DNA from: an uncultured Methanosarcinales archaeon
GTDB taxonomy: Archaea; Nanobdellota; Nanobdellia; Woesearchaeales; DATDXC01
Length of the DNA stretch: 64,000 nucleotides
Direction: 5' to 3'
Assembly: GCA_964510025.1 (NCBI GenBank)
Contig: CAZDZV010000006.1
Location: forward strand, 11,143-75,142
In this document: piece after piece, positions 22,668-55,579 of the stretch
Layout of the letters: each line of letters starts with the position of its first letter
Numbering within the stretch: the stretch's first letter is position 1
The notes under the pieces: model-generated
Told to the model about the DNA's origin: nothing
Database searches by the model: none
What the model saw: the letters and a program-made list of their open reading frames with translations, nothing else
Position numbers and translations under genes: made by a program

Positions 22668-23683
22668 GAAAGAAACCAAAAATATTTTTCTATTTGCCTG
22701 AGGAATATCTTCCGCAAGGCCAGATACCAGAGGATTATACAGAATTCTGGGACTACTGTGTAAAGAACTGGAATGGGTACTATGCGGGAATTCTAGTCTG
22801 GACCCTTAAGACGTACCTATTGCTTAAAGATTATGTTTCATGCAAATTAGTTACAAACATTCCTGAAAAAGGGATAATCATTGCTCATAGAAAATCCTTA
22901 CCTGCAAAACCGAAGCCGAAGCAGCTCTTTGTTTGCATCAAGGCAGATAAGTCAGTACACCCATATTCGCAGATCCATCTGGTGCAAAATTCTTGTGACT
23001 GTCTCTTCAAAAGGTCACCCGGACTGTGGCAGACATACTATGTCCCCCGTTGGCCCCAGGATAAATTGAAGCCAAGGTCAAAATCGAGAGGCACAAGACT
23101 AGAGAATGTTGGTTATTATGGGGTAAGACGGGAGCTGGCCAAAGAGTTACAGTCTAAAAAATTTGAGAGACTTATGCAATCGAACGGTTTTAAGTGGCAT
23201 ATTTTTTCCAATCCGAAGAAGTGGGTTGATTACAGCAAAACAGATGCTATTGTAGCGGTTAGGAGTTTTAAAAAACAGGGATTCAATAATAAGCTAGCGT
23301 CTAAACTATATAATGCGTGGCGAGCAGGTGTACCTGTATTATTGGGGCCAGAGACAGCTTATCAAAATGAGAAAAAAAGCCGGTTTGATTATATGGAAGT
23401 AAATTCAGCAAATGAAATAATCTCAGCACTTAAAAGCTTAAGAAAGAATCATAGGTTATACAAGCAAATGGTGAATAATGGAATTATCCGATCCAAAGAG
23501 GTCAGTCAGAATAAGATTATCGGTCTTTGGAAATCTTTTTTGGTGAATGTTGCAGTTCCTGCATATCGAAGGCACTGTAAAAATCGTATTTCCACTAACA
23601 TGTTCCTGCTGCAGAGATATTTTTATAACGTATATTATCAACTTCATTTTAAATTTAGGTCGAAAATTTTGTATGGCATATAA
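22655..23683 (+). CDS. putative GT-B-like glycosyltransferase
   Basis: 342 aa. C-terminal NNKLASKLYNAWRAGVPVLLGPE resembles the GT-B donor-binding helix. Tentative. Confidence 0.3.
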   Translation: MDSIRKKPKIFFYLPEEYLPQGQIPEDYTEFWDYCVKNWNGYYAGILVWTLKTYLLLKDYVSCKLVTNIPEKGIIIAHRKSLPAKPKPKQLFVCIKADKSVHPYSQIHLVQNSCDCLFKRSPGLWQTYYVPRWPQDKLKPRSKSRGTRLENVGYYGVRRELAKELQSKKFERLMQSNGFKWHIFSNPKKWVDYSKTDAIVAVRSFKKQGFNNKLASKLYNAWRAGVPVLLGPETAYQNEKKSRFDYMEVNSANEIISALKSLRKNHRLYKQMVNNGIIRSKEVSQNKIIGLWKSFLVNVAVPAYRRHCKNRISTNMFLLQRYFYNVYYQLHFKFRSKILYGI

Positions 23684-24194
23684 TAAAATATTTGGGATAG
23701 GTCTTTCAAAAACTGGGACTACATCTTTAGCTAGGGCCTTGGAGATTTTGGGATTTAGGACTGTTCACTCCCCTAGGAAGTCCTATTTATATGAGAAAAG
23801 AAGAGGCCTTCCATATTTCTCTACATTAGAAGAATATAGGGGTTTTACAGATTTTCCTTGTTGGGCAATATACAAAGAAGTGGATATTTTGTATCCGGGC
23901 AGCAAATTTATCCTAACTGTTCGAAATCCTCATGATTGGTACGTCAGCAGAAAGAAGCATTATAAAGCAAGACTGAAACAGGATATCAAACTTGATTGGG
24001 ATATGAGCAAAAAGTCAATGGATAAACTTCTGAAACATAACCAAGAAGTGATGGGGTATTTTAAGAGAAGAAAAAAAGATTTACTAGTGCTTGATATTGC
24101 AAAGGGAGAAGGTTGGGACAAGCTGTGCCGGTTCCTGCAGGTCCAAGAACCTTCCTTAACATTCCCCCACCTTAACAAGTCAGAATGTCTGTGA
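23673..24194 (+). CDS. sulfotransferase-family protein (1 of 3)
   Basis: ATG 23673 gives MAYNKIFGIGLSKTGTTSLARALEILGF, a PAPS 5'-phosphosulfate-binding P-loop-like motif. The ORF track start at 23547 overlaps the previous gene and is probably over-extended. Confidence 0.6.
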   Translation: MAYNKIFGIGLSKTGTTSLARALEILGFRTVHSPRKSYLYEKRRGLPYFSTLEEYRGFTDFPCWAIYKEVDILYPGSKFILTVRNPHDWYVSRKKHYKARLKQDIKLDWDMSKKSMDKLLKHNQEVMGYFKRRKKDLLVLDIAKGEGWDKLCRFLQVQEPSLTFPHLNKSECL

Positions 24195-25051
24195 AACCTA
24201 TTGTTTCCGTGATTATACCTGTCTATAATGATTTCAGGATAGTAAAATGTCTAAAAGCTCTGAAGAATCAGACATATCCAAGAGAAAGATATGAGATCAT
24301 AGTAGTTGACAACAACTCTGACAAACACTTCCTGACAAATCTTAGGAAATATAAAATAAGATTATTGTCTGCAAAAGAAGGGACTTATGCAGCCAGAAAT
24401 AAGGGGATTAAGGCAGCCAAAGGGGATATATTAGCATTTACTGATGCTGACTGCATACCTGCAAAAGAGTGGATAGAAAAAGGGGTAGATGCTATTCGCA
24501 ATCAGGCAGCTGGATTAGTAGCAGGAAAAATTGAGTTGTTTCCAAAAGGAAACAGGCCGACCATTGCAGAGATGTTTGAAATCATTACTGGATTTAGGCA
24601 AGAACTTTATGTTAAAAAATGGCATTTTGGAGCTACAGCAAATGTCTTTACAAAGAAGCAAGTGATTAATAAGGTTGGGCCTTTTAATGATTACCTAATA
24701 TCTGGTGGTGACTTAGAATTCGGAAAAAGGATTTTTGAAGCAGGCTATATGCAAATCTATGCACCTGAAGTTATTGTCTGGCATCCGGCAAGAGGCTCTG
24801 TCTTGAAGATATTGGGAAAGCATCGCAGGGTAGTGAGGGGCATAAACTGCATACAAAAGACTAAATCCATAAAGAAATTATTGGTGGATATTAAGGATGA
24901 CTGGCCGCAGCTGGCAGATTTTAGAGAAATTTTAGGGGATCGACGCCTAAAAAAATTTAGGTTAAAGGCATCTATATTTTTTATTTTACTCCTTGTTCGT
25001 TTTGCACGAACATCACAAAGAATATTTTTTATAGACCGCAAAAATAGCTAA
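24185..25051 (+). CDS. GT2 glycosyltransferase
   Basis: VSVIIPVYNDFRIVKCLKALKNQTYPRERYEIIVVDNNS ... AFTDADCIP (DxD). Confidence 0.85.
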   Translation: MSVKPIVSVIIPVYNDFRIVKCLKALKNQTYPRERYEIIVVDNNSDKHFLTNLRKYKIRLLSAKEGTYAARNKGIKAAKGDILAFTDADCIPAKEWIEKGVDAIRNQAAGLVAGKIELFPKGNRPTIAEMFEIITGFRQELYVKKWHFGATANVFTKKQVINKVGPFNDYLISGGDLEFGKRIFEAGYMQIYAPEVIVWHPARGSVLKILGKHRRVVRGINCIQKTKSIKKLLVDIKDDWPQLADFREILGDRRLKKFRLKASIFFILLLVRFARTSQRIFFIDRKNS

Positions 25052-26091
25052 TGAGAAGGAAAGCAGCGCTTTTATTCCCAACATTCCATGGTGGAGGTGC
25101 GGAAGCAGTATGTGCCTGGATATTAGATGCTTTGAAAGGCAGATATGATATAGATTTATTCACCTGTCAAAAAATTACGGCAGAAGAACTTAACAGGTTT
25201 TATGGAACCAAATTATCCAGAAACTCGTTTAGGCTTATTTATAGCAAGCTATTCAATGCGCTTATCCGGATTAACAAAATTTTGCCTTTTGATCCTAATC
25301 TTAGAAGCAGACTGCTAAAAATTACCTTTGAAAAATTTAAGCAAGATTATGATCTTGTTATAAATGGGAAGGATGAAATAGACATCAGTGAAAAAAGTAT
25401 TCATTATATCCATTTTGCAGGCAATCTCATTAAGGGCAAACCATTGCATAAGCATCGTTACATAGCGAATTCCAGAAGTACGGCTAAGCGTGCTGGCTTT
25501 AGGGATATAGGGGTAGTCTATCCGCCCGTGTGTAAAAGGTTTAAAAAAGTTCCCTGGAAATCAAAAGAAGAAGGCTTCATAATAATAGGCAGGATTACAG
25601 AAGAAAAGGGTACACATAAGGCAATTCAAATACTGCAGAAAGTGAGGGCCAAAGGATATGAGGTTAACCTCCATATCGTAGGGACAGTTTATAATTGGCG
25701 CTATTTTGGTTTGGTGAAAAAGATGGCCAGGAAAAGGGATTGGGTGATCCTACATAAGTCAATTTCTAACTATCGGCTTAAAAAGTTGTTGGAAAAGAAT
25801 AAATATGGCATACATTGTAAAGGCGGTGAGCCCTTCGGTATCGATCCTGCGGAAGTGCTTTATTCAGGCGGCATACCGTTTGTACGTAATAAAGGGGGGC
25901 AGACTGAGATTGTCGGAGACAAAAGGCTGATATTCGGGTCCGAGGATGAGGCTGTAGAGAAGATATGCAAGGTGCTTAGCTCAAAAAAAATTCAGGCTCA
26001 TTTATTAAAAAAACTAAATAAAAGAAAAAAAATATTGGGATGCGACAGGTTTAGAGAGAATTTTTTGAAGGCTATCCACAAAATGCAATGA
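25051..26091 (+). CDS. GT4-type (GT-B) glycosyltransferase
   Basis: 346 aa. EKGTHKAIQIL...GEPFGIDPAEVLYSGGIPFV, an E-x7-E-like region. Confidence 0.6.
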   Translation: MRRKAALLFPTFHGGGAEAVCAWILDALKGRYDIDLFTCQKITAEELNRFYGTKLSRNSFRLIYSKLFNALIRINKILPFDPNLRSRLLKITFEKFKQDYDLVINGKDEIDISEKSIHYIHFAGNLIKGKPLHKHRYIANSRSTAKRAGFRDIGVVYPPVCKRFKKVPWKSKEEGFIIIGRITEEKGTHKAIQILQKVRAKGYEVNLHIVGTVYNWRYFGLVKKMARKRDWVILHKSISNYRLKKLLEKNKYGIHCKGGEPFGIDPAEVLYSGGIPFVRNKGGQTEIVGDKRLIFGSEDEAVEKICKVLSSKKIQAHLLKKLNKRKKILGCDRFRENFLKAIHKMQ

Positions 26092-26915
26092 AGAGAGGCA
26101 TCTATCTCTTAGCAAATGACCAGGTCTTAGATAATACGCTCGCATTAATCAATAGCATACGTTTTTTTGATCCATATGCATCAATTATCATGATACCTTA
26201 CGATTGTCATGATGTCCGCATAACAACTATTCTGAGAGAGAAATATGGCATTCCGAAGTACCGGAATGATTCGCTGCTCAATAGAATTGACCTGAAAATT
26301 AAGGAGTTTTTTGGAAAGAAATTTTTTACCAGACCTAATCAGTTTAGGAAGCAAGCCTGTTGGTTTGGACCTTTTGATGAATTTCTTTATCTAGACACCG
26401 ACATTGTGGTTTTTGAAAGAATAATTAACAATCTAGAACATCTTAAAAACAAGGATTTTGTTTTTTGTGACTATCAGCACAAGAACGGAATAAAATATTT
26501 GTTTAATCCGCCAATCAAGAATGCCTTAGAAAAAGAGGATCTGAAATTTGTTTTTAACGCTGGTTTTTGGGGATCAAGAAAAGAACTGATAACAGAGCGC
26601 AAGCTATATGGCGCACTTGAAGAATGCGCCAAAAATATGAATTTTTTTGATTTTTCAGCAAAAGTTACTGATATGCCAATTTTTAATTATTTAGTTTTAA
26701 GGAAAATAAAAAAAAGAATCAATTTGGTAAGGGATCTAGAAAGAAAAGGACCAGGAAATTGGGCAGGGATGGATCATTTTATCAGAAAAGGGAACCGGCT
26801 TTTTGATCCAAATGTAAAGCAGTACCTCAAATACCTGCATTGGGCTGGGATTAATATCCAAAAAGGTTGTCCTTACTATGATGTATGGAATTACTATCGG
26901 AGATTGAATAAGTGA
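26088..26915 (+). CDS. putative GT-A-fold glycosyltransferase (GT8-like)
   Basis: 275 aa. GIYLLANDQVLDNTLALINSIR ... FLYLDTDIVVF (DxD). Tentative. Confidence 0.35.
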   Translation: MKRGIYLLANDQVLDNTLALINSIRFFDPYASIIMIPYDCHDVRITTILREKYGIPKYRNDSLLNRIDLKIKEFFGKKFFTRPNQFRKQACWFGPFDEFLYLDTDIVVFERIINNLEHLKNKDFVFCDYQHKNGIKYLFNPPIKNALEKEDLKFVFNAGFWGSRKELITERKLYGALEECAKNMNFFDFSAKVTDMPIFNYLVLRKIKKRINLVRDLERKGPGNWAGMDHFIRKGNRLFDPNVKQYLKYLHWAGINIQKGCPYYDVWNYYRRLNK

Positions 26916-27667
26916 ATATCTGTTTTTCAACGCTCGCATTGGGAAAAAAGTACCAAGAAATGGCCAAGACCCTTGCCGCTGATATCAAAAAATTCAATCC
27001 AAAAATGAAGATAATTATTTTATCAGACGATACTAAGGTCTTTGAAGATATGGACAATGTGATGGCGATACATCATTGCCAGCAGGGAGTGATGTTCCCT
27101 TACCATGATAAAAGATTTGTTGTAGCTGAAGCGTTGAGACGATTTGACGCTACATTATTTGTAGATGCTGACAGCAGGTTGAACTCGTATGTTGATATAT
27201 CGGGCATATCAAGAGAGGATATATACTGTAACCAGACTGAAAATCTGATAGCTCACATTAAGAAATACAACCCAGATCGTTTATACCATGTAAACAAGAT
27301 AGCCAAGAAAATGTCAATTAATCCCGATAAGGTAACTTATATGGGAGAATCTTTTTTTTTTATCGGAACAAAAAAGATTCAGGATTTTATCTATTATTGG
27401 GGCAAGATAGTAGGATATTTGGAAATTCACAGGATTGTTGCAGGAGCAGGCATTTCGATGGGACTCGCTGCACATAAGGCAGGTATCAAAATATGTGAAT
27501 CAGACAGGTTGCTTACCGCTTCAAGATCCTTTGAACATATCAATATTGCCAAAAAAAAGAGTAAGCAGTCTCTTTACGAATCATTTAAGAACAGGTTCCT
27601 TTACCACTATAGGCTTAATAAAGCTAGGATAAAAGCTATATCAGATTTTGATTTTTACTACAGATAA
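26912..27667 (+). CDS. putative GT-A-fold glycosyltransferase
   Basis: 251 aa. GTG start in a GTGA overlap. LFVDADSRL (DxD). Contains a T10 run at 27352-27361. Tentative. Confidence 0.3.
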   Translation: MNICFSTLALGKKYQEMAKTLAADIKKFNPKMKIIILSDDTKVFEDMDNVMAIHHCQQGVMFPYHDKRFVVAEALRRFDATLFVDADSRLNSYVDISGISREDIYCNQTENLIAHIKKYNPDRLYHVNKIAKKMSINPDKVTYMGESFFFIGTKKIQDFIYYWGKIVGYLEIHRIVAGAGISMGLAAHKAGIKICESDRLLTASRSFEHINIAKKKSKQSLYESFKNRFLYHYRLNKARIKAISDFDFYYR

Positions 27668-27668
27668 T

Positions 27669-28598
27669 ATGAATGAACCTAAGCCTTTTCTCTCAATCGT
27701 GACACCAACATTGGGAAGATTTTCAGAATATTGGCTAGAATCATTGCTGTCAATTGAAGGGGATGTTGAGTTTATCTTGGCATATCCACCACATTCCGAT
27801 ACCCTTACGATAAACGACCTTAGACTAAAGGTCATTATTAGCGATTTTATTGGGGAGGTCATGCAAAGAGCAGCTGGATTAAGGCATGCGAAAGGAAAAT
27901 ATGTTTTAGCATTGGATGACGATGATTATGTGCACCCCAATATAGTTGAATTGGCTAAGGATTATTTTGATAAATATCCCGGAAGCTGGCTTTTTAGGTT
28001 GCAGAAACATGGTATCGATTACAAGAATATGCAGGATATTCGAGCCCCGTGGAAACCTGTCAAAAAAGTCGAGAAGATGAAGCTCTTAGAAATACCCATT
28101 GCTCCCCTAAGAAAAAGGTTTGAACCGATGGCTTTATGGCCCCAGTATAGAAGAAAAGACCATCATGGCATTCATTCAGAAAATTTCGTAGATAGGATAT
28201 GGAGAAACGATTTGGTACAGCCTGCAGTAGATGATTTTTTTGACTGTTTGAAAATTTTTGGACAGGTCAGATATATCCCCCCGAAAAATTCATATGGATT
28301 TGACAGAGTTATGTCCCTTTTTCTGCAGGCCAAATACTTTGAGCCTGGAATAAAAATAGGGCATTGGATTAAAGATTCAGAAGCACAGATAAGAAAAGTA
28401 CATATGCCAAATGAGTTAAAGCCTGCTAGATTCCACTTTCTTTCCCATTTAGTTTTAGTGAAGAAATTTCCCCGATACGGCTACCTTTGGAACTTATTTT
28501 TTGAGACATTTTGGGATATACCCCGAAAAATTGGGAAGGCATTAAAGATCAGACAGCGGCAGAATCATAAACTGGGTAAGACGATTAAAATGAGGTAG
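27669..28598 (+). CDS. GT2-like glycosyltransferase
   Basis: ATG 27669 lies 1 nt after the previous stop; the ORF track starts at TTG 27648. LSIVTPTLGR ... VLALDDDDYV. Confidence 0.45.
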   Translation: MNEPKPFLSIVTPTLGRFSEYWLESLLSIEGDVEFILAYPPHSDTLTINDLRLKVIISDFIGEVMQRAAGLRHAKGKYVLALDDDDYVHPNIVELAKDYFDKYPGSWLFRLQKHGIDYKNMQDIRAPWKPVKKVEKMKLLEIPIAPLRKRFEPMALWPQYRRKDHHGIHSENFVDRIWRNDLVQPAVDDFFDCLKIFGQVRYIPPKNSYGFDRVMSLFLQAKYFEPGIKIGHWIKDSEAQIRKVHMPNELKPARFHFLSHLVLVKKFPRYGYLWNLFFETFWDIPRKIGKALKIRQRQNHKLGKTIKMR

Positions 28599-28612
28599 TC
28601 TGCAAGAAGAAA

Positions 28613-29476
28613 TTGGCTAACGAAACATATATTTCCGTGATTGTCCCCGTATATAACGGAGAGAAGACCATTGAGAGATGTTTATGCTCACTTGCAAATC
28701 AGCGCTATCCTAAAAAAAGATATGAAGTGATAATAGTCGACAATAATTCCACTGATGATACAAAAAAAATAATTGAGAAATATCCAGCTAAATATTTGTG
28801 TGAAAAAAAAAGAGGTTCTTATGCTGCAAGAAATAAAGGTATTAGATATGCTAAAGGCAGAATCTTGGCATTTACTGATGCAGACTGCATGGCTCATGTG
28901 AATTGGATAGCAGATGCTGTTAGGGAATTTTCAGACAAAAAAACCGGATGCGTCGCCGGAAGGATAGGTGCAGGTCAAAGAAATAGCCATATAGAAAGGT
29001 ATATTGCTAAAAAGAAGCTGCTTATACAAAAGAAAGAACCATGCGGTCTGCCGCTCCCCTATGCAAAGACAGCAAACGCTTTTTATAGAAAAGAAGTTTT
29101 TGACAAGATAGGATTGTTTGAAGAATGGATTTCCGGAGGAGATGCTGATCTCTGCTGGAGGATGCAGAAGAAAACAGAATATGGGCTGAAGTTTTCGCGT
29201 GCGCTAGTTATACATAAACATAGGACCTCAACAGCAGGATTGTTTAAGCAGTGCTTTAAGTGGGGTATAGGCAATGCCTTCTTGAAAAAAAAATACCGAG
29301 AAATGCCGCAAATATCATTTAGGGGCCGTTTGTGGATTATTTGCCGGATCCTCTTCGGTTTGCCCATGCTTTTTTATCTGATCCTAAAAAAGGACTCATC
29401 TGACAGATTATTTGATAGGCTAGCATTTATTGGATGGCATTTAGGAATGTTTATCGGATTTATAAAAAAAAGATGA
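28613..29476 (+). CDS. GT2 glycosyltransferase (paralog of 24185..25051)
   Basis: ISVIVPVYNGEKTIERCLCSLANQRYPKKRYEVIIVDNNSTDDT ... AFTDADCMA. TTG start. Confidence 0.85.
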   Translation: MANETYISVIVPVYNGEKTIERCLCSLANQRYPKKRYEVIIVDNNSTDDTKKIIEKYPAKYLCEKKRGSYAARNKGIRYAKGRILAFTDADCMAHVNWIADAVREFSDKKTGCVAGRIGAGQRNSHIERYIAKKKLLIQKKEPCGLPLPYAKTANAFYRKEVFDKIGLFEEWISGGDADLCWRMQKKTEYGLKFSRALVIHKHRTSTAGLFKQCFKWGIGNAFLKKKYREMPQISFRGRLWIICRILFGLPMLFYLILKKDSSDRLFDRLAFIGWHLGMFIGFIKKR

Positions 29477-30303
29477 AAGGTCCAGATTTCATTGTCTTAG
29501 GAGCGGCAAAAGCAGGAACTACCTCTCTTTATCATTACTTAAAGCAGCATCCGGCAATTTTTATTCCAAGTAAAAAGGAATTAAGATTTTTTACTAACAG
29601 GACAGCTGATATTGACGAATATCTGAGGTTTTTCGTGGAGAAATCTGATAAAGTAGCCGGGGAAGTTTCAAGTGATTACTTGTATTCCGGACCCGATACT
29701 GCTAAAAGGATAAAGAAATATTTTCCAGGTGTAAAGCTTATAGCTATACTGCGAAATCCTATTGATAGGGCATATTCAGAATATTGTATGGATCTAAGAC
29801 TTGGAAAAGTCACAGGAAGTTTTGCTGATGAGTTGGGGGGGAAATTCAAAACAAGGTATCTTAATCAGGGATTTTATCATAAGCAGATAAAAAGATATTT
29901 AAAAATATTTGATGAGAAACAATTTAGGGTTTGGCTTTATGATGACCTGTGCCAGGATCCTATGAAGCTATTACAGGAAATTTTTAAATATATCCGTGTA
30001 GATACTAACTTTATACCCAATATCAAAATAAAACATAATAAAGGGGCTGTACCAAAAAATATTTTTGTTCAGGTTTTAGTCCAAAGACCTAATATATTAA
30101 GAAAAGTATTTAGAAATTTTTCAGCACTATTTTTTCCTTTACATATTAGACAAAGAATTCGTAATAGTATAATAAATCACAATTTAAGGAAAATTCTTCC
30201 TATGGATTCAGACATAAGAAGGTCTTTATTAGAGTTTTATAGATCTGACATAATTAAGTTACAGACCCTAATGAATCGTGATTTGTCTTCATGGTTGCGC
30301 TAA
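29473..30303 (+). CDS. sulfotransferase (Sulfotransfer_1-like; 2 of 3)
   Basis: ATG 29473 in an ATGA overlap gives MKGPDFIVLGAAKAGTTSLYHYLKQHP (5'-PSB loop). RNPIDRAYSEY is the 3'-PB region. Confidence 0.8.
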   Translation: MKGPDFIVLGAAKAGTTSLYHYLKQHPAIFIPSKKELRFFTNRTADIDEYLRFFVEKSDKVAGEVSSDYLYSGPDTAKRIKKYFPGVKLIAILRNPIDRAYSEYCMDLRLGKVTGSFADELGGKFKTRYLNQGFYHKQIKRYLKIFDEKQFRVWLYDDLCQDPMKLLQEIFKYIRVDTNFIPNIKIKHNKGAVPKNIFVQVLVQRPNILRKVFRNFSALFFPLHIRQRIRNSIINHNLRKILPMDSDIRRSLLEFYRSDIIKLQTLMNRDLSSWLR

Positions 30304-30309
30304 CATAAT

Positions 30310-31218
30310 ATGCAAATCCAAATATCTGCCATAGTATGTACATATAACAGAAGCAATTATCTTAAGAGAACTTTGAAAAGCTTGATTAAACAGAGTTTAG
30401 ATAACCAGGTGTATGAAATAATTGTGGTAGATAACGCATCAACAGATAATACTAAGAAGATGGTTTCAGAATATTCAAGAATTAATTTTAAATACAGCTA
30501 TGAGAGCAAATTGGCTTTATCTATTGCTAGAAATACAGGTTTAGAAAAAGCAAAAGGTAAATATGTTGCATATATCGACGATGATGCAATAGCTGATGAA
30601 TATTGGTTACAGAATATTCTAAGTTCTTTTAAAAAAGAGAAGAATGTTGGCTGTATCGGAGGGAGGGTAAAACCAATTTGGGAAAGCAAAAAACCAGTAT
30701 GGTTGGATTACAACCTATACCCTTTTCTCAGCTTGCTGGATAAGGGAAAGAAAAGATATATCTTTTCGGAATCTGAGTGGTTCTCCGGGACCAATATGGC
30801 TTTCAGAAAGGATTTGTTAAGAAAAATAGGGGGGTTTCCCGTACATCTCGGTAGAAAAGGCAATTATCTTTTGTCCGGGGAAGAGGTTTATGTCAAGCAG
30901 AAAATCGAGAACCTAGGCTACTTAGCCCTCTATAATCCAGAAGCTCTTGTGCATCACAGTATACCTGGCAGTAGGCTTGCAAAGCAGTGGTTTATTGGAA
31001 GGTTGTTTTGGCAAGGCGTTACCAATGCCGTAATGGAGCCAAAAAAACCTTTTTTGCACCAGCTAAGATCGGGAATCGCTATGTCCCTGCCCGTTTTCTT
31101 CAACCTAGATTCACTTTCTGCCTTGTTCGACAGTTCAGATGATCCAAAGCTTTTCTATGAGAAATGCAGGGTGATTGGCAGATTTGGCTATAGCATGAAG
31201 ATGCTAAGATTGATATGA
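30310..31218 (+). CDS. GT2 glycosyltransferase
   Basis: ISAIVCTYNRSNYLKRTLKSLIKQS...YEIIVVDNASTDNT...YIDDDAIA. Confidence 0.85.
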   Translation: MQIQISAIVCTYNRSNYLKRTLKSLIKQSLDNQVYEIIVVDNASTDNTKKMVSEYSRINFKYSYESKLALSIARNTGLEKAKGKYVAYIDDDAIADEYWLQNILSSFKKEKNVGCIGGRVKPIWESKKPVWLDYNLYPFLSLLDKGKKRYIFSESEWFSGTNMAFRKDLLRKIGGFPVHLGRKGNYLLSGEEVYVKQKIENLGYLALYNPEALVHHSIPGSRLAKQWFIGRLFWQGVTNAVMEPKKPFLHQLRSGIAMSLPVFFNLDSLSALFDSSDDPKLFYEKCRVIGRFGYSMKMLRLI

Positions 31219-32231
31219 AAATCGCGTATCTATCAGACAACTGGCCATGGTTTGGTAGATATAGCTCATATTCTCGATTAATTCACTATATTAAGAAGCT
31301 TTCAGATGTTGATGTTGTAGAGACAAAATACACTTTACCCAGGAAGGTCATGGGAAAGATTTATTCTACTGTCCAGGGCGTCGGCAGAAAAGACTCAGTG
31401 TTTGCTGCATCTGAATTTCTGTTCAGGAAAAAAATAAACAGGGGACTGGCCCATGTCCTGTATTACGATACGCATTATCCGATGTGGAAAAAAGAGCTGA
31501 AAAATGTTGTTACCACCATACATCATCCGCCAGACAGGATGCTTCCGGCCCTTATGAAGATGAATCTTAGAAATGTTTCCAAAGCCATCGTACTATCTAG
31601 AAAAAATATTGAATTCTACAAAGAAGCTGTGGGTGAAAATAATGTTGTATTCATCCCTCATGGTGTAGACACTGAATTTTTCAGCCCTGCTGAAACCTGC
31701 GATGAACAAAGAATGCTTTTCGTAGGTCAAAATGGAAGGAATACTGTAATGTTTTCAAAAGTTGTAAAAAAATTGCTCAGACATAATCCTGATTTGATAT
31801 TTGATTTGCTAGTAGTAAAAGACAAGAGGACTGTCTCAGGATTGAAAGAACTTAGGCACCTTCCTAATGTTAACTGGCTTTCTACTAAGAGCAGCGAAGA
31901 GCTTAGAGATATTTACCAGAGAAGTTATCTGTTAGTGATGCCAATGGAAAGCTGCTCAGCCAACAACGCTATTGTTGAGTCTTTGGCATGCGGGCTGCCT
32001 GTAGTGACAACTGATGTTGGTGGTATCAGGGATTATGGTGGAGGAACTGTCTATAAGACAGCAGATAATGTTCAGGAGACTGTTGAACTTGTAGAAAAGT
32101 ATTTGGAAGATAGATCATTTCGGGATAAGATCGCAAAAGACTGCAGGTATTTTGCAGTTGAAATTCTGGATTGGAAGAAAATTGCAATATTGCATATGGA
32201 TTTTTACATTCAGATGGCCTATGAAAAATAG
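31215..32231 (+). CDS. GT4 glycosyltransferase
   Basis: LVMPMESCSANNAIVESLACGLPVVTTDVGG. ATGA overlap. Confidence 0.75.
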   Translation: MKIAYLSDNWPWFGRYSSYSRLIHYIKKLSDVDVVETKYTLPRKVMGKIYSTVQGVGRKDSVFAASEFLFRKKINRGLAHVLYYDTHYPMWKKELKNVVTTIHHPPDRMLPALMKMNLRNVSKAIVLSRKNIEFYKEAVGENNVVFIPHGVDTEFFSPAETCDEQRMLFVGQNGRNTVMFSKVVKKLLRHNPDLIFDLLVVKDKRTVSGLKELRHLPNVNWLSTKSSEELRDIYQRSYLLVMPMESCSANNAIVESLACGLPVVTTDVGGIRDYGGGTVYKTADNVQETVELVEKYLEDRSFRDKIAKDCRYFAVEILDWKKIAILHMDFYIQMAYEK

Positions 32232-33129
32232 TCTTGAAAAGAAAAAACCACTGGCGACAGTTATTGTACCCACATACAACCATGCCTGTTTCATCGAAGA
32301 TGCACTGGATAGCCTGCTGAATCAGAGCTATGAAGAAATTCAGATAATTGTCGTGGATGATGGCTCAACAGACCAGACAAGCAAGATTTTGACAAAATAC
32401 AAAAAAGACATTAAATATGTTTATCAAAAGAATTCAGGCCAGGCCGCTGCAATCAAAAAAGGCATAGGGTTGGCAAAAGGCACATATATCTTCATCTTAA
32501 ATGCTGATGATATGTTCATGGCAAATAAGATTGGCAAAGTTGTTTCAGTATTCGAATCCTGCCCGACGGTAACGCATGTCTCGCATCCTGTCCTGGAATG
32601 GGATGGAACATCTAGAAAAATAGAGCCTATACCCAGCCAGATATTGAATAAAGTAATCGATGGAAAAAGACTGTTAGAGTATTTTTACCTGAACAGGTTC
32701 TACGGCGGTGGATCTACCGTAGCTGGCAGAGCATCTATCTGGAAAGAAATCCATATTCCAAGGCAGGTTGATATGTTCATTGATGAATATCTGGCCATCT
32801 CATCTTTAAGAACCGGTTCAGGCTATTTTATAGGTACACCCCTCTCCATATACCGGATTCATGATTCCAACTATTCCAGAATCCCAATAGCCAGGAAGGC
32901 TCTAAGAAATATGAAGGCAAATAAGGCCATACTGGATCAGCTGGACGGTGAGATAAAAATAATGTATGAACTAAAAACAAGGATAGCATATCTGAAATAT
33001 AAGGAGATTATATGCAAAAAAGAGCTCGCGGATGTGATCTCTTTGTGGCAATTTCTATTTAGGCATAAGAGCCTGATGAGATGGAAGACAATCAAAAATT
33101 ATCGGATCCTGCATAGAACAGTCCTATGA
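32221..33129 (+). CDS. GT2 glycosyltransferase
   Basis: ATG 32221; the ORF track start at 32152 is over-extended. LATVIVPTYNHACFIEDALDSLLNQSYEEIQIIVVDDGSTDQT ... ILNADDMF. Confidence 0.85.
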   Translation: MKNSLEKKKPLATVIVPTYNHACFIEDALDSLLNQSYEEIQIIVVDDGSTDQTSKILTKYKKDIKYVYQKNSGQAAAIKKGIGLAKGTYIFILNADDMFMANKIGKVVSVFESCPTVTHVSHPVLEWDGTSRKIEPIPSQILNKVIDGKRLLEYFYLNRFYGGGSTVAGRASIWKEIHIPRQVDMFIDEYLAISSLRTGSGYFIGTPLSIYRIHDSNYSRIPIARKALRNMKANKAILDQLDGEIKIMYELKTRIAYLKYKEIICKKELADVISLWQFLFRHKSLMRWKTIKNYRILHRTVL

Positions 33130-34034
33130 AAACCAGTGTAATCATCCCTAGCTATAGAAGACCGGCATGCCTGCAAAAATGCTTAAACGCATTGGAGAAC
33201 CAGTCAGTTGCGCCGGAAGAAATAATTGTGGTTCTCAGAAAAAATGATATAGAGACTGTCAGCATGGTAAAAAGAGAGAATTGCAGGGCTATTTATGTAA
33301 ATAGTCCTGGGCAGGTAGCTGCACTCAACACTGGATTAGATAATGCCTTAGGCGACATAATAGCGATTACAGACGATGATGCTGTACCCCACAAGGATTG
33401 GATTAAACTGATTGAAAGGCACTTTAGAAATGACAATGATTTGGCTGGACTCGGGGGGAAGGACAATCTTTACATCGATTACAGGTTGTTGAGGGGTAAA
33501 AAAAGGCTGGTTGGAAAGATCCGATGGTTTGGAAGCATAGTGGGAAATCACCATCTGGGATACGGGCGACCCAGGGAGGTGGACCATCTTAAAGGCGTCA
33601 ATATGAGTTTCCGCAAGGAAGCTATCAAAGATTTACGCTTCGATAAGCGGTTAAGGGGGCTGGGTGCCCAGGTTAGAAATGACACTGCCTTCTGCTTACA
33701 GCTCAAGAGAAAAGGCGCCAAGCTGGTATATGACCCAGAAGTTGTCGCTGACCATTTTCAGGCACCTAGATTTGAGAGGGATAAACGTGGAAATTTTGAC
33801 TATAGTGCTGTATTAGACGGTGCTTTTAACGAGACTCTTGTTCTATTAGAGTACCTCCCTTTCTTTGGAAAGATCTGCCACCTTTTTTTTGCCTTACTTA
33901 CGGGGAATATCTTCACCCCGGGCCTGATCCAGTTCATCCGAATCCTGCCAAGAGAAAAAAAAGATGCTGTTCATAGGTTTTTGGCTTCTTTGGAAGGCAG
34001 AAAGAAAGCCATTCTATTAACATGGATAAAGTAG
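33126..34034 (+). CDS. GT2 glycosyltransferase
   Basis: TSVIIPSYRRPACLQKCLNALENQS ... ITDDDAVP. Confidence 0.8.
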   Translation: MKTSVIIPSYRRPACLQKCLNALENQSVAPEEIIVVLRKNDIETVSMVKRENCRAIYVNSPGQVAALNTGLDNALGDIIAITDDDAVPHKDWIKLIERHFRNDNDLAGLGGKDNLYIDYRLLRGKKRLVGKIRWFGSIVGNHHLGYGRPREVDHLKGVNMSFRKEAIKDLRFDKRLRGLGAQVRNDTAFCLQLKRKGAKLVYDPEVVADHFQAPRFERDKRGNFDYSAVLDGAFNETLVLLEYLPFFGKICHLFFALLTGNIFTPGLIQFIRILPREKKDAVHRFLASLEGRKKAILLTWIK

Positions 34035-35155
34035 CTTTCATAGTCAGCCACCCGATCCAGTATTTCTCTCCGCTATTTAGATTACTATCGAAAAAAATGG
34101 ACCTTACGGTCATTTATCTATCAGATGAAACATTGAAGACTTTCATGGATAAAGAATTTTCAGCAGCGATTAAGTGGGATATTCCTTTGTTAAAAGGGTA
34201 TAGGTACAAATTACTAAAAAATAATTCACCTGTCCATTCTGTTTCCAGGCCACCTTTTGGTTTATTAAATCTTGGGATTCTAAATGAGATAACCAATAAA
34301 AAATATGATTGCATAATAGTCCATGGGTGGCATTATGTAAGCCATTGGTTAGTCTACATCCTATGTATCCTTAGGCAGCTGCCTTTCTATATTAGGTCTG
34401 AATCTCCCCTAAACCAGGAAAAAACAAAGCCTGATTGGAAGATTTACATCAAAAAAATTTTACTTGGATATTTATTTCGTAGGGCAGCTGGTCTTCTGGC
34501 GATTGGAACTCAAAACAGGAGATTCTATGGGTTCTATGGGGTAGAAAATAAAAAAATCTTTTATGCACCTTATTCTGTCGATAATGATAGGCTTATGCCA
34601 AAAAAACGTAAAACTAAAAAAGACAAAATAGTAATCTTGTTTGTTGGGAAGCTTATAGAGAAAAAAAGGCCTATGGATCTGTTGCAGGCCTTTGAAAGGA
34701 TAAGTTATGAAACAAAAGCCCTGTATTTTGTAGGCGAAGGAAAAATGAAGAGACAGCTGCAAAAATATACGAAAAAAAATCATCTAAAAAACGTATTTTT
34801 CCCTGGATTTGTAAATCAGACAGCCCTCCCAGACTATTATAATATGGCGGATATATTTGTGCTTCCGTCTGGAATAGGAGAAACCTGGGGGCTGGTAGTA
34901 AACGAAGCAATGTGTTTTGGCCTCCCAGTTATAGTATCGGATATTTCAGGATGCAGCACAGATTTGGTAAAACAAGGCAAAAATGGCTACATATTTAAAA
35001 CAGGAGATATAGGACAATTGTCACGATATTTGAACATGCTTATAAAAAATAAGAAACTAAGAAACCAGATGGGATCTAGGTCTCTCAAAATCATAGGTCA
35101 ATTTAGCTGCAAAGCAGCAGCCGAAGGGATTGCTAAGGCTGTCAAGAGAAAATGA
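34022..35155 (+). CDS. GT4 glycosyltransferase
   Basis: FVLPSGIGETWGLVVNEAMCFGLPVIVSDISG. Confidence 0.8.
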   Translation: MDKVAFIVSHPIQYFSPLFRLLSKKMDLTVIYLSDETLKTFMDKEFSAAIKWDIPLLKGYRYKLLKNNSPVHSVSRPPFGLLNLGILNEITNKKYDCIIVHGWHYVSHWLVYILCILRQLPFYIRSESPLNQEKTKPDWKIYIKKILLGYLFRRAAGLLAIGTQNRRFYGFYGVENKKIFYAPYSVDNDRLMPKKRKTKKDKIVILFVGKLIEKKRPMDLLQAFERISYETKALYFVGEGKMKRQLQKYTKKNHLKNVFFPGFVNQTALPDYYNMADIFVLPSGIGETWGLVVNEAMCFGLPVIVSDISGCSTDLVKQGKNGYIFKTGDIGQLSRYLNMLIKNKKLRNQMGSRSLKIIGQFSCKAAAEGIAKAVKRK

Positions 35156-36963
35156 AGCCATTTTTAAAAATAAGGAAAATTTTAGGACTTTTCAGAAAAC
35201 TCGAAATCCGCTTAGTTTACTTTGCGATCCCTATAGTTCTTTCGTTTCTAATAGCATTTTTTGAAGGCCTAAGCATCGGACTGCTAATACCCTTGGCTAA
35301 AGGGATTGTGGAGATGGAATTCAGTTTTGTGAGAAACCTTCCTTTTTTTAAGACAATCAATGACCTTTTCCCCCAGTTGCTAGCGCATAATAGGGCGATC
35401 TTTGTGACTCTTGTACTGATCATATTCATCTCAGCAGTCTTAAAAAATGTCTTCACCTATCTATCTTCCGTCATAGTAAGATATCAAATACGGCAAGCTG
35501 CGCATAAAGCAAGAAAGCACATATTCAATAGATATCTAAGTTTTGGCAAGCTTTTTTATGACAGGAATAATGAGGGCCATCTGCAAAGCATACTGCTCAG
35601 CTATACAAACTCGATCATAGGTCAGCTAGGCTCTATCTCCCACCTCATGAACGGCTCCGCTATGCTTCTTGTGTATTTTATTATGATGTTTTCCATATCC
35701 TGGAGATTGACTGTATTCATTCTGCTGATATTTCCGGTCCTGAACCTATCACTGAAATATCTGATTGCGAAGATAAAGAAAACCTCAAAGTTCTCGGCAG
35801 ATGCTAGGAAGAGGATGAACAGGGCAGTCTTCAACGTGCTTTCGTCTATACCGATTATAAAGGCATATACGAAAGAGGAGGAGGAAAAGAAGAACTTTGA
35901 CAAAATGAGCGAAGAAATGTCAAAATGGGACTTCAGTATGGATAAAAAATACGACCTGATAGGGCCAATGCAGGAAGTTATAACCTTGATAGCAGTACTG
36001 TTGGTAATCTCAGCCATGGCCTTCTTGTTTATAAAAACTAAGACAGGTGATATCTACGGGTTTGCCGTATTTTTTTATCTGTTGAAGAAATCCATGGGCA
36101 CGTTTGGTATCTTTAACAGCTTCAAGGGATCATTGGCAAAAGCCTCCGGACAGGTGCAAGAAATAATGCATATTCTCAGTGAGAAGAATAAGCATTATGT
36201 AAAAGGAGGAAGAAAAGAATTCAATGGATTGGAATCAGAGATTAAGCTGAGTAGGCTAAGCTTCCATTATGACTCAAAAGTTCCCATAATCAAGGACATA
36301 TCCTTCTCTATCAGAAAAGGAAAGATGACGGCTATTGTAGGGCCAACTGGCTCAGGTAAGACAACAATAATCAATCTTCTTCTGAGATTTTATGAATGCC
36401 CTGAAGGTTCTATATTTGTAGATGGGCGGGATATCAAGGAGTTCACGTTAAAATCGATAAGAAAGCATATGGCCCTTGTCAGCCAGGATACTATGCTTTT
36501 CAATGATACATTGAGAAAAAATATGACCTACGGAATAGACAGACAGGTGTCTCAGCAGGAGTTGGCTAGGATAGCAAAAAAGGCCCGGATCTATGACTAC
36601 ATCAAGAAGCTTCCGCGTGGCTTTGAAACGGTTATAGGTGATAGGGGAGTGCAGCTTTCTGGAGGTGAAAAGCAGAGGATATCGATTGCAAGAGCCCTCT
36701 TGAAGAACGCCGATATATTGATACTAGATGAAGCCACAAGCTCCCTGGACTCCAGAACAGAAAAGCTCATTCAGGAAGCTATCTACGAAGCTGTGAAGGG
36801 GAGAACCTCTATAGTCATCGCACACCGGCTTTCGACTATAAAGAACGCTGACAAGATTATCATCATTGAGAAAGGCAAGATAATTGAAAAAGGAAAACCC
36901 AAGGAACTGCTTGGAAAAAAAGGCAGATTCTATCAATATTGGCAGGAGCAGAAGTTTGAATAA
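35152..36963 (+). CDS. ABC exporter, fused permease/ATPase (MsbA-type)
   Basis: 603 aa with six N-terminal TM helices. Walker A GPTGSGKTT, signature LSGGEKQRISIARAL, Walker B ILILDEATSSLD and H-loop IVIAHRLST. Confidence 0.9.
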   Translation: MKPFLKIRKILGLFRKLEIRLVYFAIPIVLSFLIAFFEGLSIGLLIPLAKGIVEMEFSFVRNLPFFKTINDLFPQLLAHNRAIFVTLVLIIFISAVLKNVFTYLSSVIVRYQIRQAAHKARKHIFNRYLSFGKLFYDRNNEGHLQSILLSYTNSIIGQLGSISHLMNGSAMLLVYFIMMFSISWRLTVFILLIFPVLNLSLKYLIAKIKKTSKFSADARKRMNRAVFNVLSSIPIIKAYTKEEEEKKNFDKMSEEMSKWDFSMDKKYDLIGPMQEVITLIAVLLVISAMAFLFIKTKTGDIYGFAVFFYLLKKSMGTFGIFNSFKGSLAKASGQVQEIMHILSEKNKHYVKGGRKEFNGLESEIKLSRLSFHYDSKVPIIKDISFSIRKGKMTAIVGPTGSGKTTIINLLLRFYECPEGSIFVDGRDIKEFTLKSIRKHMALVSQDTMLFNDTLRKNMTYGIDRQVSQQELARIAKKARIYDYIKKLPRGFETVIGDRGVQLSGGEKQRISIARALLKNADILILDEATSSLDSRTEKLIQEAIYEAVKGRTSIVIAHRLSTIKNADKIIIIEKGKIIEKGKPKELLGKKGRFYQYWQEQKFE

Positions 36964-38053
36964 TAAATTAAGAGTTCTCTTGATAGGCAATTATGCTGCC
37001 AATAATCAAAAAAGCATGCAAAGATTTGCCACTATGATGAAAAAAGGGCTGGAAAAAAGAGGGCATTATGCTATTTTAGCTATACCTACAGCGATTTTTG
37101 GAAAATTTTTTGCAGATACCAATAAGGGGCTCGGTAAATGGCTAGCATATATTGATAAGTTTATTGTTTATCCCTTCTATTTGATCAGACAAGCGAAAAA
37201 ATTCGACCTTGTGCATATTTGCGACCATGGTAATTCCATCTACTCGTTATTTACCGGAAGAACGCCGTGTGTGGTTACCTGCCACGACACAATGGCTATC
37301 AGATGCGCTTTAGGAAAGATAAAAGAAAATAAGCTTCATTTAACTGGAAGAATATTCCAGAAGCTGATAGCCTTCGGCATAAAAAAATCTGACTATGTCG
37401 TATGCATATCAAAAAAAACCAAATCGGATCTGCTAAAAATACTACGTATAGACAGGATTAGCTTGGTTTATAATGGACAGGTGTTTAAGCCGATGCCAAA
37501 AAAAGTATCAAAAAGATATCTCAGGAAGCTTAAAGTCAATATCCCTTACTTTCTGCATGTAGGCAATAACAATTGGTATAAGAACCGGATCGGCGTTTTA
37601 AAGATATTTAGCGATCTAGAACTGCCAGGTTACGGCTTGGTGATGGTGGGCGCTTCTTTTTCAAGGGGCATGAAGGATTTTGTAGCTAAACATAATTTAC
37701 CTGTAAGAGAAATCACATCAGCTGACGATAATGAGCTGGGGGCATTGTATTCTAATGCTGAAGCGCTGATATTTCCGTCTCTGGAAGAAGGTTTTGGTTG
37801 GCCTATAATTGAGGCCCAGGCATGCGGATGTCCTGTCTTCACCACTGACAGAAATCCGATGAAAGAGGTTGCAGGAGATGGCGCTATATATTTTCAGAAT
37901 CCCGAGAGCCACAGACAATGTGCGGATATTATTATCAATAATTTGGCGAAAGCAAGGAATAAAATAAAAAAAGGTTTAGAAAACGCTGCAAGTTTCAAAC
38001 CGAGTTACATGATAGATGGTTATATCAAAATCTACAAGTCATTGAAAAAATGA
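36956..38053 (+). CDS. GT4 glycosyltransferase
   Basis: I prefer TTG 36956, giving MNNKLRVLLIGNY with an 8-nt overlap on the ABC stop, over TTG 36884, which has an 80-nt overlap. LIFPSLEEGFGWPIIEAQACGCPVFTTDRNP. Confidence 0.8.
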   Translation: MNNKLRVLLIGNYAANNQKSMQRFATMMKKGLEKRGHYAILAIPTAIFGKFFADTNKGLGKWLAYIDKFIVYPFYLIRQAKKFDLVHICDHGNSIYSLFTGRTPCVVTCHDTMAIRCALGKIKENKLHLTGRIFQKLIAFGIKKSDYVVCISKKTKSDLLKILRIDRISLVYNGQVFKPMPKKVSKRYLRKLKVNIPYFLHVGNNNWYKNRIGVLKIFSDLELPGYGLVMVGASFSRGMKDFVAKHNLPVREITSADDNELGALYSNAEALIFPSLEEGFGWPIIEAQACGCPVFTTDRNPMKEVAGDGAIYFQNPESHRQCADIIINNLAKARNKIKKGLENAASFKPSYMIDGYIKIYKSLKK

Positions 38054-38170
38054 GGATTCTTTACATTGTCTAAATGAAGGATATAATAGCTCAAGCTACA
38101 ACAAGATGAAACTAAGTACGATACAAATTAAAGAAAGGATTGTAGGTTTGTTCAGTTTAGTAGGAACAAG

Positions 38171-38935
38171 ATGTTAATCAACATGCTAAAAAAGAGTGAA
38201 TATGTGCGAAAAAAATACCATGGCATAAAAGATTTTTTTTATGGCCTTAAATACTTTTCAGGAACTAAAAAAGGTCTAAAATACTTTATAGTTGTATGTC
38301 AAGCAAGGACAGGCAGTACATTATTGATGGACTTATTAGGTTCACACCCGAATATTAAAGTAGACCATCACAGCTTTTTTAAGATAGATAATTTGAAGCA
38401 TAAAATAACCCAGCAAAAAGCAAATACGCGTAAATTCTGCAGGGGATTCAAGTTTAGGTTGTACGATGATGGAAAGGAATATGATTTTAGCAAAATGTAT
38501 CAATTCTTTTGCTCTCTGGATAATGCAGATATTAAGATGATCCACCTAATCAGAAAAAACCAGCTAAGACAGTCCCTTTCCGCAGAAGTGGTAGACTATT
38601 ACAAGAAAATTGGATTGACAAGGCTTCATTCAAAAGATAAGAATCCTGAGATACCGAAAATAAAGGTAGATATCCAAAAGACGCTAAATCGGATTAATTA
38701 TTCAAGAAAGTTGCTAAAGGCAGAGAATGATCTGCTCAAGCATTTCCGCCATCATACAGTTAATTATGAAAAAGATCTTTTGCATTCAACCGACCATCAA
38801 AAAACATCAGACAAGATATTTGCATTTTTGGGCCTCCCCTCTGCTAAGGTCAGTTCAGATTATCGAAAGACAAGTATTGACAACCCATCAGAATATATTG
38901 ATAATTTTAATCAATTGAGGTTGCACTACGAATGA
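38171..38935 (+). CDS. sulfotransferase-family protein (Stf0-like P-loop; 3 of 3)
   Basis: 254 aa. YFIVVCQARTGSTLLMDLLGSHPNI. Preceded by the largest gap of the block (117 nt). Confidence 0.6.
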   Translation: MLINMLKKSEYVRKKYHGIKDFFYGLKYFSGTKKGLKYFIVVCQARTGSTLLMDLLGSHPNIKVDHHSFFKIDNLKHKITQQKANTRKFCRGFKFRLYDDGKEYDFSKMYQFFCSLDNADIKMIHLIRKNQLRQSLSAEVVDYYKKIGLTRLHSKDKNPEIPKIKVDIQKTLNRINYSRKLLKAENDLLKHFRHHTVNYEKDLLHSTDHQKTSDKIFAFLGLPSAKVSSDYRKTSIDNPSEYIDNFNQLRLHYE

Positions 38936-46608: not shown

Positions 46609-47019
46609 CTATTTTAGCCTTCTTATCATCTTAAGCGCAGATTCAACGCTTCTTTTTGCATAGCTTTCTATTCTCTTTATGCCGTCTGCCCGGGTCATCT
46701 TGGGTCCTGAAATTCCCAAAGACACCGGTTTGCCTGACTGTACGCTTATGTCTGCGATCTTTCTTGCTGCGTTATTGGCCACGATCTGATCATGGTCTGT
46801 ATCTCCCTCTACAACCGCGCCTAAGCAGACTACCCCGTCAATTTCTTTCCTCTTGACAAGCTTGCTTACCGCGAGGGGTATATCAAAAGCTCCTGGCACC
46901 CTTATTGTCTTGGCTGCCGTTGCTCCCAAAAATCCCGCATGCTCTTGTGCAATCTTGCTCATAAGATGGGTTATATCTGCGTTGTAGTCTGAGACCACAA
47001 ATCCTAGCTTTTCGTTCAT
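46609..47019 (-). CDS. ribH: 6,7-dimethyl-8-ribityllumazine synthase
   Basis: 136 aa. GFVVSDYNADITHLM, RVPGAFDIPLAV, DGVVCLGAVVEGDTDHD. Confidence 0.85.
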   Translation of the reverse strand: MNEKLGFVVSDYNADITHLMSKIAQEHAGFLGATAAKTIRVPGAFDIPLAVSKLVKRKEIDGVVCLGAVVEGDTDHDQIVANNAARKIADISVQSGKPVSLGISGPKMTRADGIKRIESYAKRSVESALKMIRRLK

Positions 47020-48004: not shown

Positions 48005-48018
48005 GCTGCACCCCCAGA

Positions 48019-52966: not shown

Positions 52967-52975
52967 TTCTTCACC

Positions 52976-55563: not shown

Positions 55564-55579
55564 TATTTCCCCAGTATAG

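Follow-up and report, generated by a model that had tools for sequence, protein, structure and literature searches.

Does an archaeon that likely belongs to the DPANN lineages sulfate its surface glycans, and with which kind of enzyme? The question is raised by a 64-kb stretch of contig CAZDZV010000006.1 (assembly GCA_964510025.1), hereafter the window, in which three dissimilar genes for putative sulfotransferases, ST1 (23673..24194), ST2 (29473..30303) and ST3 (38171..38935), lie within a glycan cluster of about 28 kb (about 17.9-46.2 kb) whose genes are all on the + strand. A preliminary description of this DNA had drawn attention to the three open reading frames (ORFs), and each is indeed found there on the + strand, at full length and with the motifs then quoted. 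Sequence and profile searches confirm that they encode members of PAPS (3'-phosphoadenosine 5'-phosphosulfate)-type sulfotransferase families, and of three different ones, and the gene content suggests that a sulfated glycan is probably made for the cell surface. The reading that we favour, with a probability of about 0.6, is that a lipid-linked glycan is sulfated in the cytoplasm, before its export, in the pathway encoded by this archaeal surface-glycan cluster.

We regarded an ORF as coding for a sulfotransferase when it scored above the curated threshold of a family profile and carried, after the first beta strand, a 5'-phosphosulfate-binding (5'-PSB) loop of the form K/R-x-G-T/S-T/S; for the 3'-phosphate-binding (3'-PB) site we looked for an Arg residue at a strand end, followed by a Ser residue in the next helix. 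Hidden Markov model (HMM) searches place ST1, ST2 and ST3 in sulfotransferase families (PF17784, PF00685/PF13469 and PF13469, respectively) and not in other P-loop families, and the 3'-PB residues are present in all three (R84/S92 in ST1, R94/S102 in ST2 and R128/S137 in ST3), where they are invariant or nearly so; on both counts the initial assignment holds. The proteins had also been described as not close paralogs of one another, and pairwise BLASTP bears this out, giving just motif-sized matches of 21-24 residues. Moreover, structure prediction for ST1 and ST3, which had been proposed as a check, returns sulfotransferases as all of the top Foldseek matches in the PDB. Each of the three family HMMs, run against the six-frame translation of the window, recovers its own ORF alone, and neither this search nor a Pfam search of all the cluster ORFs detected a fourth sulfotransferase or a hidden paralogue. 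No membrane segments were found in ST1, ST2 or ST3, whereas the Wzy-like protein and the phosphoglycosyl transferase of the same cluster show clear ones, and NCBIfam holds no specific model for any of the three. The three genes are unexceptional members of large families that are mostly bacterial.

ST1 is predicted to be a soluble protein of 173 residues, a compact form of the Sulfotransfer_4 family, and matches PF17784 with an E-value of 6.2e-33 (114.9 bits, cut-off 22.8). The start of its gene overlaps the upstream ORF, and its stop overlaps the glycosyltransferase gene that begins at 24185. The family shows no variation at T14 and S18 within the 5'-phosphosulfate loop (SKTGTTS), at the 3'-phosphate-binding residues R84, W89 and S92, or at H122 and D60, which are candidates for the catalytic base. 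The AlphaFold2 model (mean predicted local distance difference test score, pLDDT, of 94.7) finds sulfotransferases in 21 of its 21 top PDB matches, the first 19 of them at query TM-scores (TMq) of 0.71-0.79, and in fold it comes closest to SgdX2, Cpz8 and the Schistosoma sulfotransferases (TMq 0.72-0.79); by sequence, the closest solved proteins are again the Schistosoma enzymes and SgdX2, at about 1e-13. ST1 has in common with Schistosoma SULT-OR, SgdX2 and Cpz8 the fold, both PAPS-binding motifs and a C-terminal GW..LC.FL...P...FPH.N segment. It differs from these Sulfotransfer_4 enzymes, whose deposited names suggest drug-activating or natural-product enzymes and not glycan sulfotransferases, in its length (173 residues, against 195-260) and in lying within a glycan cluster. 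The 173-residue short form is common to ST1 and its closest homologues, which are 58-66% identical to it; one of these (60%) is found in an Omnitrophota bacterium with a complete genome of 1.27 Mb (CP070684.1), and other close homologues are on contigs with bacterial features. Homologues in the 58-66% range occur in small-genome, Omnitrophota-like bacteria, and on two contigs the gene is at a conserved position beside HD-domain, SpoU-methylase and CutA1 genes, a context which hints at a non-glycan role for the homologues in those bacteria. Some close homologues adjoin ribosomal operons, and a homologue from Thorarchaeota (41% identity) likewise lies outside any glycan cluster.

ST2 (Sulfotransfer_1/3 family) is a predicted soluble protein of 276 residues that matches both PF00685 (3.4e-15, 56.6 bits, cut-off 22) and PF13469 (1.4e-14, 55.3 bits, cut-off 27), and that aligns over its full length with a solved bacterial sulfotransferase, 3rnl, at 7.9e-49. 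The database gene call is of 289 residues, from 29434; the start at 29473 is favoured here because it fits the consensus of the homologues and forms an ATGA overlap with the upstream stop. K13 and T16 of the 5'-phosphosulfate loop (AKAGTTS) are family-invariant, as are E64 and R94, and S102 is found in at least 90% of the sequences. Residues 4-180 align with the heparan-sulfate enzymes NDST1 and 3-OST (1e-9 to 1e-12), and in this alignment E64 falls on the Glu of the NDST1 segment EKSANYF, which we take to be the proposed catalytic base. ST2 shares with 3rnl, from Alicyclobacillus, and with NDST/3-OST the PKxGTT loop, the RNPxDRxxS helix and, following the second strand, a conserved Glu; the alignments with the animal NDST and 3-OST enzymes nevertheless look distant, and to our knowledge no substrate has been assigned to 3rnl. 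More than 1000 homologues of ST2 are found at E-values of 1e-10 or lower. The closest (48-55% identity) include proteins on contigs with SmpB or a DbpA-type helicase, cyanobacteria and Geobacillus are among the named members of the next tier (37-43%), and the best matches that carry names are mostly cyanobacterial.

ST3, with 254 residues and also predicted to be soluble, is a divergent member of a NodH/Stf0-like family. By itself it matches PF13469 (Sulfotransfer_3) in its N-terminal part only (29.1 bits, cut-off 27), and has no match to Stf0 (PF09037) in the Pfam search. A word-indexed protein search returns three matches, two of them non-self, and an exhaustive HMMER scan 1251 cluster representatives at E-values of 1e-3 or lower, in full-length alignments; ST3 as an orphan protein is ruled out by this family of more than 1250 representatives. 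The best non-self homologue among 1.8 billion representatives is 35% identical. In an alignment of 64 family members, 59 match Sulfotransfer_3 and 21 match Stf0, and the profile of the family reaches the NodH structure 9vki at 2.2e-9 and the Stf0 structure 1tex at 4e-4. In the same 64 sequences R46 and G48 of the loop ARTGSTL, R128 and S137 of the R.N..RQ..S helix, and Y199, E200 and L203 are invariant; the pair Y199 and E200 is a candidate for the catalytic base. The AlphaFold2 model built on this alignment has a mean pLDDT of 91.6 and a predicted TM-score (pTM) of 0.86, and its 22 top PDB matches are, without exception, solved sulfotransferases (3-OST isoforms, 3rnl, TPST and Stf0). ST3 is like 9vki and 1tex in the RxGS(T) 5'-PSB loop and in the R..N....S 3'-PB helix, and both relatives appear to be carbohydrate sulfotransferases, 9vki having been deposited as LPS (lipopolysaccharide) sulfotransferase NodH and 1tex being Stf0 with trehalose; it differs from them in falling below the Pfam Stf0 model and in being at most 35% identical to any representative. 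The sole named relative in the word-indexed search, from Winogradskyella (32% identity), is encoded amid a glycosyltransferase-rich cluster.

Where do these genes come from, and why three? Those nearest relatives of ST1, ST2 and ST3 whose taxonomy is readable are bacterial. No syntenic archaeal cluster with such genes was found, the closest homologues of ST1 and ST2 being on bacterial-looking contigs and in unrelated contexts. The GC content of the cluster is mostly 35-39% (41.5% at 32-34 kb), against mostly 42-45% in the left flank. Because of the bacterial nearest relatives and the mostly lower GC content, the data point to acquisition of the three genes from bacteria, a direction of transfer that we infer. 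As regards their number, the acceptor-binding parts of the three proteins are unrelated, and for this reason the enzymes most likely act on different hydroxyls or on different sugars, a view for which Agl30 and Agl31 of Halobacterium (PMC11980604) and XssA and XssE of Synechocystis (PMC8205485), precedents for one glycan served by several different sulfotransferases, offer a reasonable analogy.

The gene starts and stops between 17.9 and 46.2 kb mostly overlap or abut, in an operon-like packing. The preliminary description had spoken of an archaeal glycan cluster, and the surroundings of the three genes agree with this in holding, besides a priming transferase and an acetyltransferase, 14 glycosyltransferases supported by Pfam (eight GT2 and six GT4/GT1), an ABC exporter and a Wzy-like protein. 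The run begins with the gene for a PHP-family phosphoesterase (17879..18718); this gene is overlapped by the upstream ParB-like gene (17070..17882), and its own stop overlaps the start of the gene for a polytopic membrane protein resembling Wzy and O-antigen ligases, and thus a polymerase or ligase (18715..20118), with a match to Pfam Wzy_C and many hydrophobic windows. Four abutting ORFs that match no Pfam or NCBIfam family (20105..20893, 20938..21762, 21756..22667 and 22655..23683) lead to ST1, and are by context candidates for glycan-modifying or glycosyl-transfer enzymes. Between ST1 and ST2 are a GT2 (Glycos_transf_2; 24185..25051) and a GT4 gene (Glycos_transf_1; 25051..26091), an ORF of the Npun_R2821/R2822 family (26088..26915; NCBIfam NF045582 at 263.8 bits, cut-off 250, and no Pfam match), an ORF without a match in either database (26912..27667), a GT2-like gene (27648..28598) and a further GT2 gene (28613..29476). 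The membership of 26088..26915 in a family whose Npun_ locus tags are, we presume, those of Nostoc punctiforme agrees with the cyanobacterial names among the ST2 relatives. ST2 is followed by a block of glycosyltransferase genes with Pfam E-values of 1e-14 to 1e-40, in the order GT2 (30310..31218), GT4 (31215..32231), GT2 (32152..33129), GT2 (33126..34034) and GT4 (34022..35155). Next come a fused ABC exporter (35152..36963), which joins a transmembrane domain (ABC_membrane, 3.4e-22) to a nucleotide-binding domain (ABC_tran, 2.3e-35) and might flip or export the lipid-linked glycan, and a GT4 gene (36884..38053; Glycos_transf_1, 8.1e-19, and Glyco_transf_4, 8.8e-14). Downstream of ST3 the run continues, by Pfam, with a GT4 (38932..40059) and a GT2 gene (40056..41021), a hexapeptide acyltransferase (41821..42384), another GT2 gene (42374..43222), a DUF4330 protein (43224..44444) and a GT4 gene (44441..45595), an ORF without Pfam or NCBIfam match (41018..41833) preceding the acyltransferase; it closes with a small initiating phosphoglycosyl transferase of the Bac_transf type (45618..46229; PF02397, 2.8e-58), which has one N-terminal hydrophobic segment. 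The translations of the six family-less ORFs contain DxD-like strings (IDADC, FDSDI and VDADS) and, in 20105..20893, a GDS string, and these ORFs may code for unrecognised glycosyltransferases or for an SGNH-type esterase or acyltransferase. Among the cluster ORFs, Pfam finds no match to a Wzx/MATE-type flippase, a polysaccharide co-polymerase (PCP) or an outer membrane polysaccharide export (OPX) protein, and a scan of 36.5-47 kb for promoters and terminators gave the same counts as shuffled sequence and was uninformative.

How might the products of this cluster work together? The Bac_transf-type phosphoglycosyl transferase would prime polyprenyl or dolichyl phosphate with a sugar phosphate, and at least 14 GT2 and GT4 enzymes would extend the oligosaccharide at the cytoplasmic face, where the acetyltransferase and the three soluble, PAPS-dependent sulfotransferases would decorate it; the fused ABC exporter would then carry the glycan across the membrane, and the Wzy-like protein would polymerise or ligate it. 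We infer the glycan substrates and the order of the steps, and likewise the source of PAPS and the role of the PHP-family gene product, which would hydrolyse 3'-phosphoadenosine 5'-phosphate (PAP), the inhibitory by-product of PAPS-dependent sulfotransferases. The best solved relative of this PHP protein is 2yb1 (1.4e-38), which we take to be the PAP phosphatase (3',5'-bisphosphate nucleotidase) Cv1693. The Arg residues aligned with R99, R102 and R134 of 2yb1, to which we presume a role in that enzyme, are conserved. The best NCBIfam model is NF041577 (3',5'-nucleoside bisphosphate phosphatase, 240.7 bits) and RNase RNM is the second (196.6 bits). It is thus plausible that the PHP protein may hydrolyse the PAP released by the sulfotransferases; possibly, it is instead an exoribonuclease of the RNase AM type.

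The cluster is embedded in what appears to be archaeal DNA. On the same contig, it lies between two sets of archaeal housekeeping genes: aIF5B with EFTU domain 4, Trm1, RtcA and a DUF7343 winged helix-turn-helix protein on the left, and a CTP-dependent riboflavin kinase, two lumazine-synthase-like genes, DUF460 and HerA/Mre11-type genes on the right. An archaeal host, as the preliminary description had assumed, is thus supported by aIF5B, Trm1 and RtcA on one side and by riboflavin kinase, DUF460 and the HerA/Mre11-type genes on the other. Representative genomes hold 12 close matches to aIF5B, with 55-65% identity; four are labelled Candidatus Woesearchaeota, one Candidatus Nanoarchaeia, and the other seven carry the third-party label 'uncultured Methanosarcinales'. 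Identity to the metagenome-assembled genomes of Woesearchaeota and Nanoarchaeia is 55-61%, and the host is likely affiliated with DPANN, with these two groups as its closest sequenced relatives. This affinity of aIF5B is the sole evidence from the window for the reduced genome that the preliminary description had presumed. Scans of the window for tRNA genes and Rfam families as taxonomic anchors found none. Directly 3' of the glycan cluster is an archaeal-type riboflavin/FMN (flavin mononucleotide) gene group (46609..48657), in which the lumazine-synthase-like genes code for 136 and 155 residues, an unassigned ORF for 174 residues, and the adjoining riboflavin kinase is fused to MarR. Farther on, a low-GC island (52037..57113; 29-30%) with genes for a DpnII-type restriction endonuclease, a D12-class adenine methylase, an AAA_15/DUF3226 ATPase, a second N6/N4 DNA methylase and a phage-type integrase resembles a mobile restriction-modification or defence island. 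Two other genes outside the cluster may be related to the cell surface or to glycans: one for a protein of 848 residues with Laminin_G_3 and MopE-type metal-binding motifs (228..2774), the other for a PTPS_related (PF10131) membrane protein of 654 residues (59724..61688).

Several observations weigh against the reading that we favour. The solved relatives of ST1, among them the oxamniquine-activating sulfotransferase of Schistosoma as well as SgdX2 and Cpz8, include natural-product and drug-activating enzymes that act on small molecules, and none is described as glycan-acting; moreover, the closest homologues of ST1 adjoin housekeeping-type genes and not glycosyltransferases. No genes for PAPS synthesis (ATP sulfurylase or APS (adenosine 5'-phosphosulfate) kinase) are found in the 64-kb window; the PHP protein falls below the NF041577 cut-off (240.7 against 400 bits) and belongs to a family that also holds 5'-3' exoribonucleases; and the Wzy_C match of 18715..20118 is marginal (32.3 bits, cut-off 31.7). 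ST3, taken alone, exceeds its Pfam threshold by no more than about 2 bits, and the TM-scores of its structural matches are modest (0.40-0.50). Because its solved relatives include small-molecule enzymes and none described as acting on glycans, and because its nearest orthologues are not linked to glycans, ST1 is the weaker case, and the weakest link, in the proposal of glycan sulfation. It could be that the three sulfotransferases are genuine but that not all of them work on the cluster glycan, ST1 being the foremost suspect; such an enzyme might sulfate a lipid, a protein or a small molecule instead, or might be idle for want of PAPS. The places of the 58-66% homologues beside the HD-domain, SpoU-methylase and CutA1 genes or ribosomal operons, that of the Thorarchaeota homologue, and the window without a PAPS-synthesis gene all agree with this. 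However, the ST1 coding sequence overlaps both of its neighbours inside the 28-kb run of glycan genes, the solved relatives of ST2 include carbohydrate sulfotransferases, those of the ST3 family include the LPS sulfotransferase NodH and Stf0, crystallised with trehalose, and the ST3 homologue of Winogradskyella is embedded among glycosyltransferases; in addition, the PAPS-binding residues are all intact, which argues against decay. We consider that explanation unlikely, and prefer cytoplasmic sulfation of the cluster glycan before export.

Two further explanations concern the identity of the proteins and of the DNA. As the 5'-PSB motif is similar to a Walker A loop, and as kinase folds occur farther down the lists of structural matches, ST1, ST2 and ST3 might be P-loop kinases or other nucleotide-binding proteins; but all of the top sequence, profile and structural matches are sulfotransferases, the E-values of kinases are weaker by orders of magnitude, and each family has, invariant or almost so, the Arg and Ser residues of the 3'-phosphate site that are specific to sulfotransferases. 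On the strength of these matches and of the conserved 3'-PB residues we reject this explanation, which we find barely conceivable. The cluster could also be a bacterial fragment, joined in a chimeric assembly or mis-binned, given that the nearest relatives of the three sulfotransferases are bacterial where taxonomy is readable, that Bac_transf and Wzy_C are bacterial-style parts, that the Npun_R2821/R2822 family is named after cyanobacterial genes, and that the GC content is mostly lower than in the left flank. Such an origin would, however, require two precise joins in a contig with archaea-specific genes on both sides of the cluster, in which the first cluster genes overlap the upstream ParB and PHP genes and the coding density is unbroken; in view of the archaeal markers on both flanks, we judge a chimeric contig very unlikely. 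The annotation-level observation is correct: this is a polysaccharide cluster that bears sulfotransferase genes, of a kind already known, in an unusual host.

What would the cluster mean if it works as we propose? It gives three compact, soluble candidates in a defined pathway context, two of which (ST1 and ST3) are confidently modelled, and heterologous tests of the sulfation of archaeal, possibly DPANN, surface glycans could reasonably start from these; a use in engineered sulfated polysaccharides is also possible. Expectations are not overturned, as the families are large and have named sulfotransferase members, and multi-sulfotransferase polysaccharide clusters are known from cyanobacteria; the interest would grow with experimental proof of PAPS-type glycan sulfation in an archaeon. 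A bolder proposal, which we regard as tentative and rather doubtful, is that a genome-reduced DPANN archaeon took up three different bacterial PAPS-dependent sulfotransferases into a bacterial-style polysaccharide pathway and displays at its surface a multiply sulfated, strongly anionic polymer. If true, the cluster would represent the first system for PAPS-type sulfation of glycans in Archaea, possibly with a dedicated PAP phosphatase, and the polymer would possibly serve for attachment to, or protection from, a host.

The preliminary description had called the archaeal sulfotransferases poorly defined, a statement that is outdated: Agl30 and Agl31, which sulfate the N-glycan of Halobacterium salinarum at two positions, were identified in 2025, and their closest relatives in sequence and structure are sulfatases of the alkaline-phosphatase-like superfamily (PMC11980604). 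These two are so far the only archaeal glycan sulfotransferases identified experimentally, and they are most like sulfatases. That such enzymes are not expected in a reduced genome was likewise overstated, as Pfam sulfotransferases from Woesearchaeota and Pacearchaeota, all uncharacterised, are already on the list of a review of 2024 (PMC11625862). Beyond that mention, our literature search found no study of a DPANN sulfotransferase, and in the literature searched there was no characterised PAPS-type enzyme of the sulfotransferase fold from an archaeon. The locus studied here is similar to that of Halobacterium in being an archaeal glycan cluster with more than one sulfotransferase, in Halobacterium each for its own sugar or position and one of them soluble. 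The enzymes themselves differ, Agl30 and Agl31 being sulfatase-like whereas ST1, ST2 and ST3 have the sulfotransferase fold and PAPS-binding motifs; no Pfam match to a sulfatase or alkaline-phosphatase family was found for these three or for other cluster ORFs, and the mechanism would be distinct. Moreover, the Halobacterium cluster is anchored by aglB, unlike the one described here, in which no AglB was seen.

A parallel in gene content is the xss cluster of Synechocystis sp. PCC 6803, responsible for the sulfated exopolysaccharide synechan, whose sulfotransferases XssA and XssE are of distinct subfamilies and in which the lipid-linked repeat unit is thought to be sulfated while still in the cytoplasm (PMC8205485). 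The two clusters differ in that xss has two sulfotransferases against three here, in that an ABC exporter stands here in place of a recognisable Wzx flippase, with no PCP, OPX or XssQRS regulators found, and in the host, which here is an uncultured archaeon. Both combine many glycosyltransferases (eight in xss, at least 14 here) with a Wzy-type polymerase, a priming transferase and sulfotransferases of more than one subfamily, and the xss-like combination is found here in a single cluster, with Bac_transf, eight GT2 and six GT4 enzymes and three sulfotransferases. The pathway that we propose, with decoration of a lipid-linked glycan at the cytoplasmic face followed by export, follows the general scheme summarised for the xss cluster (PMC8205485).

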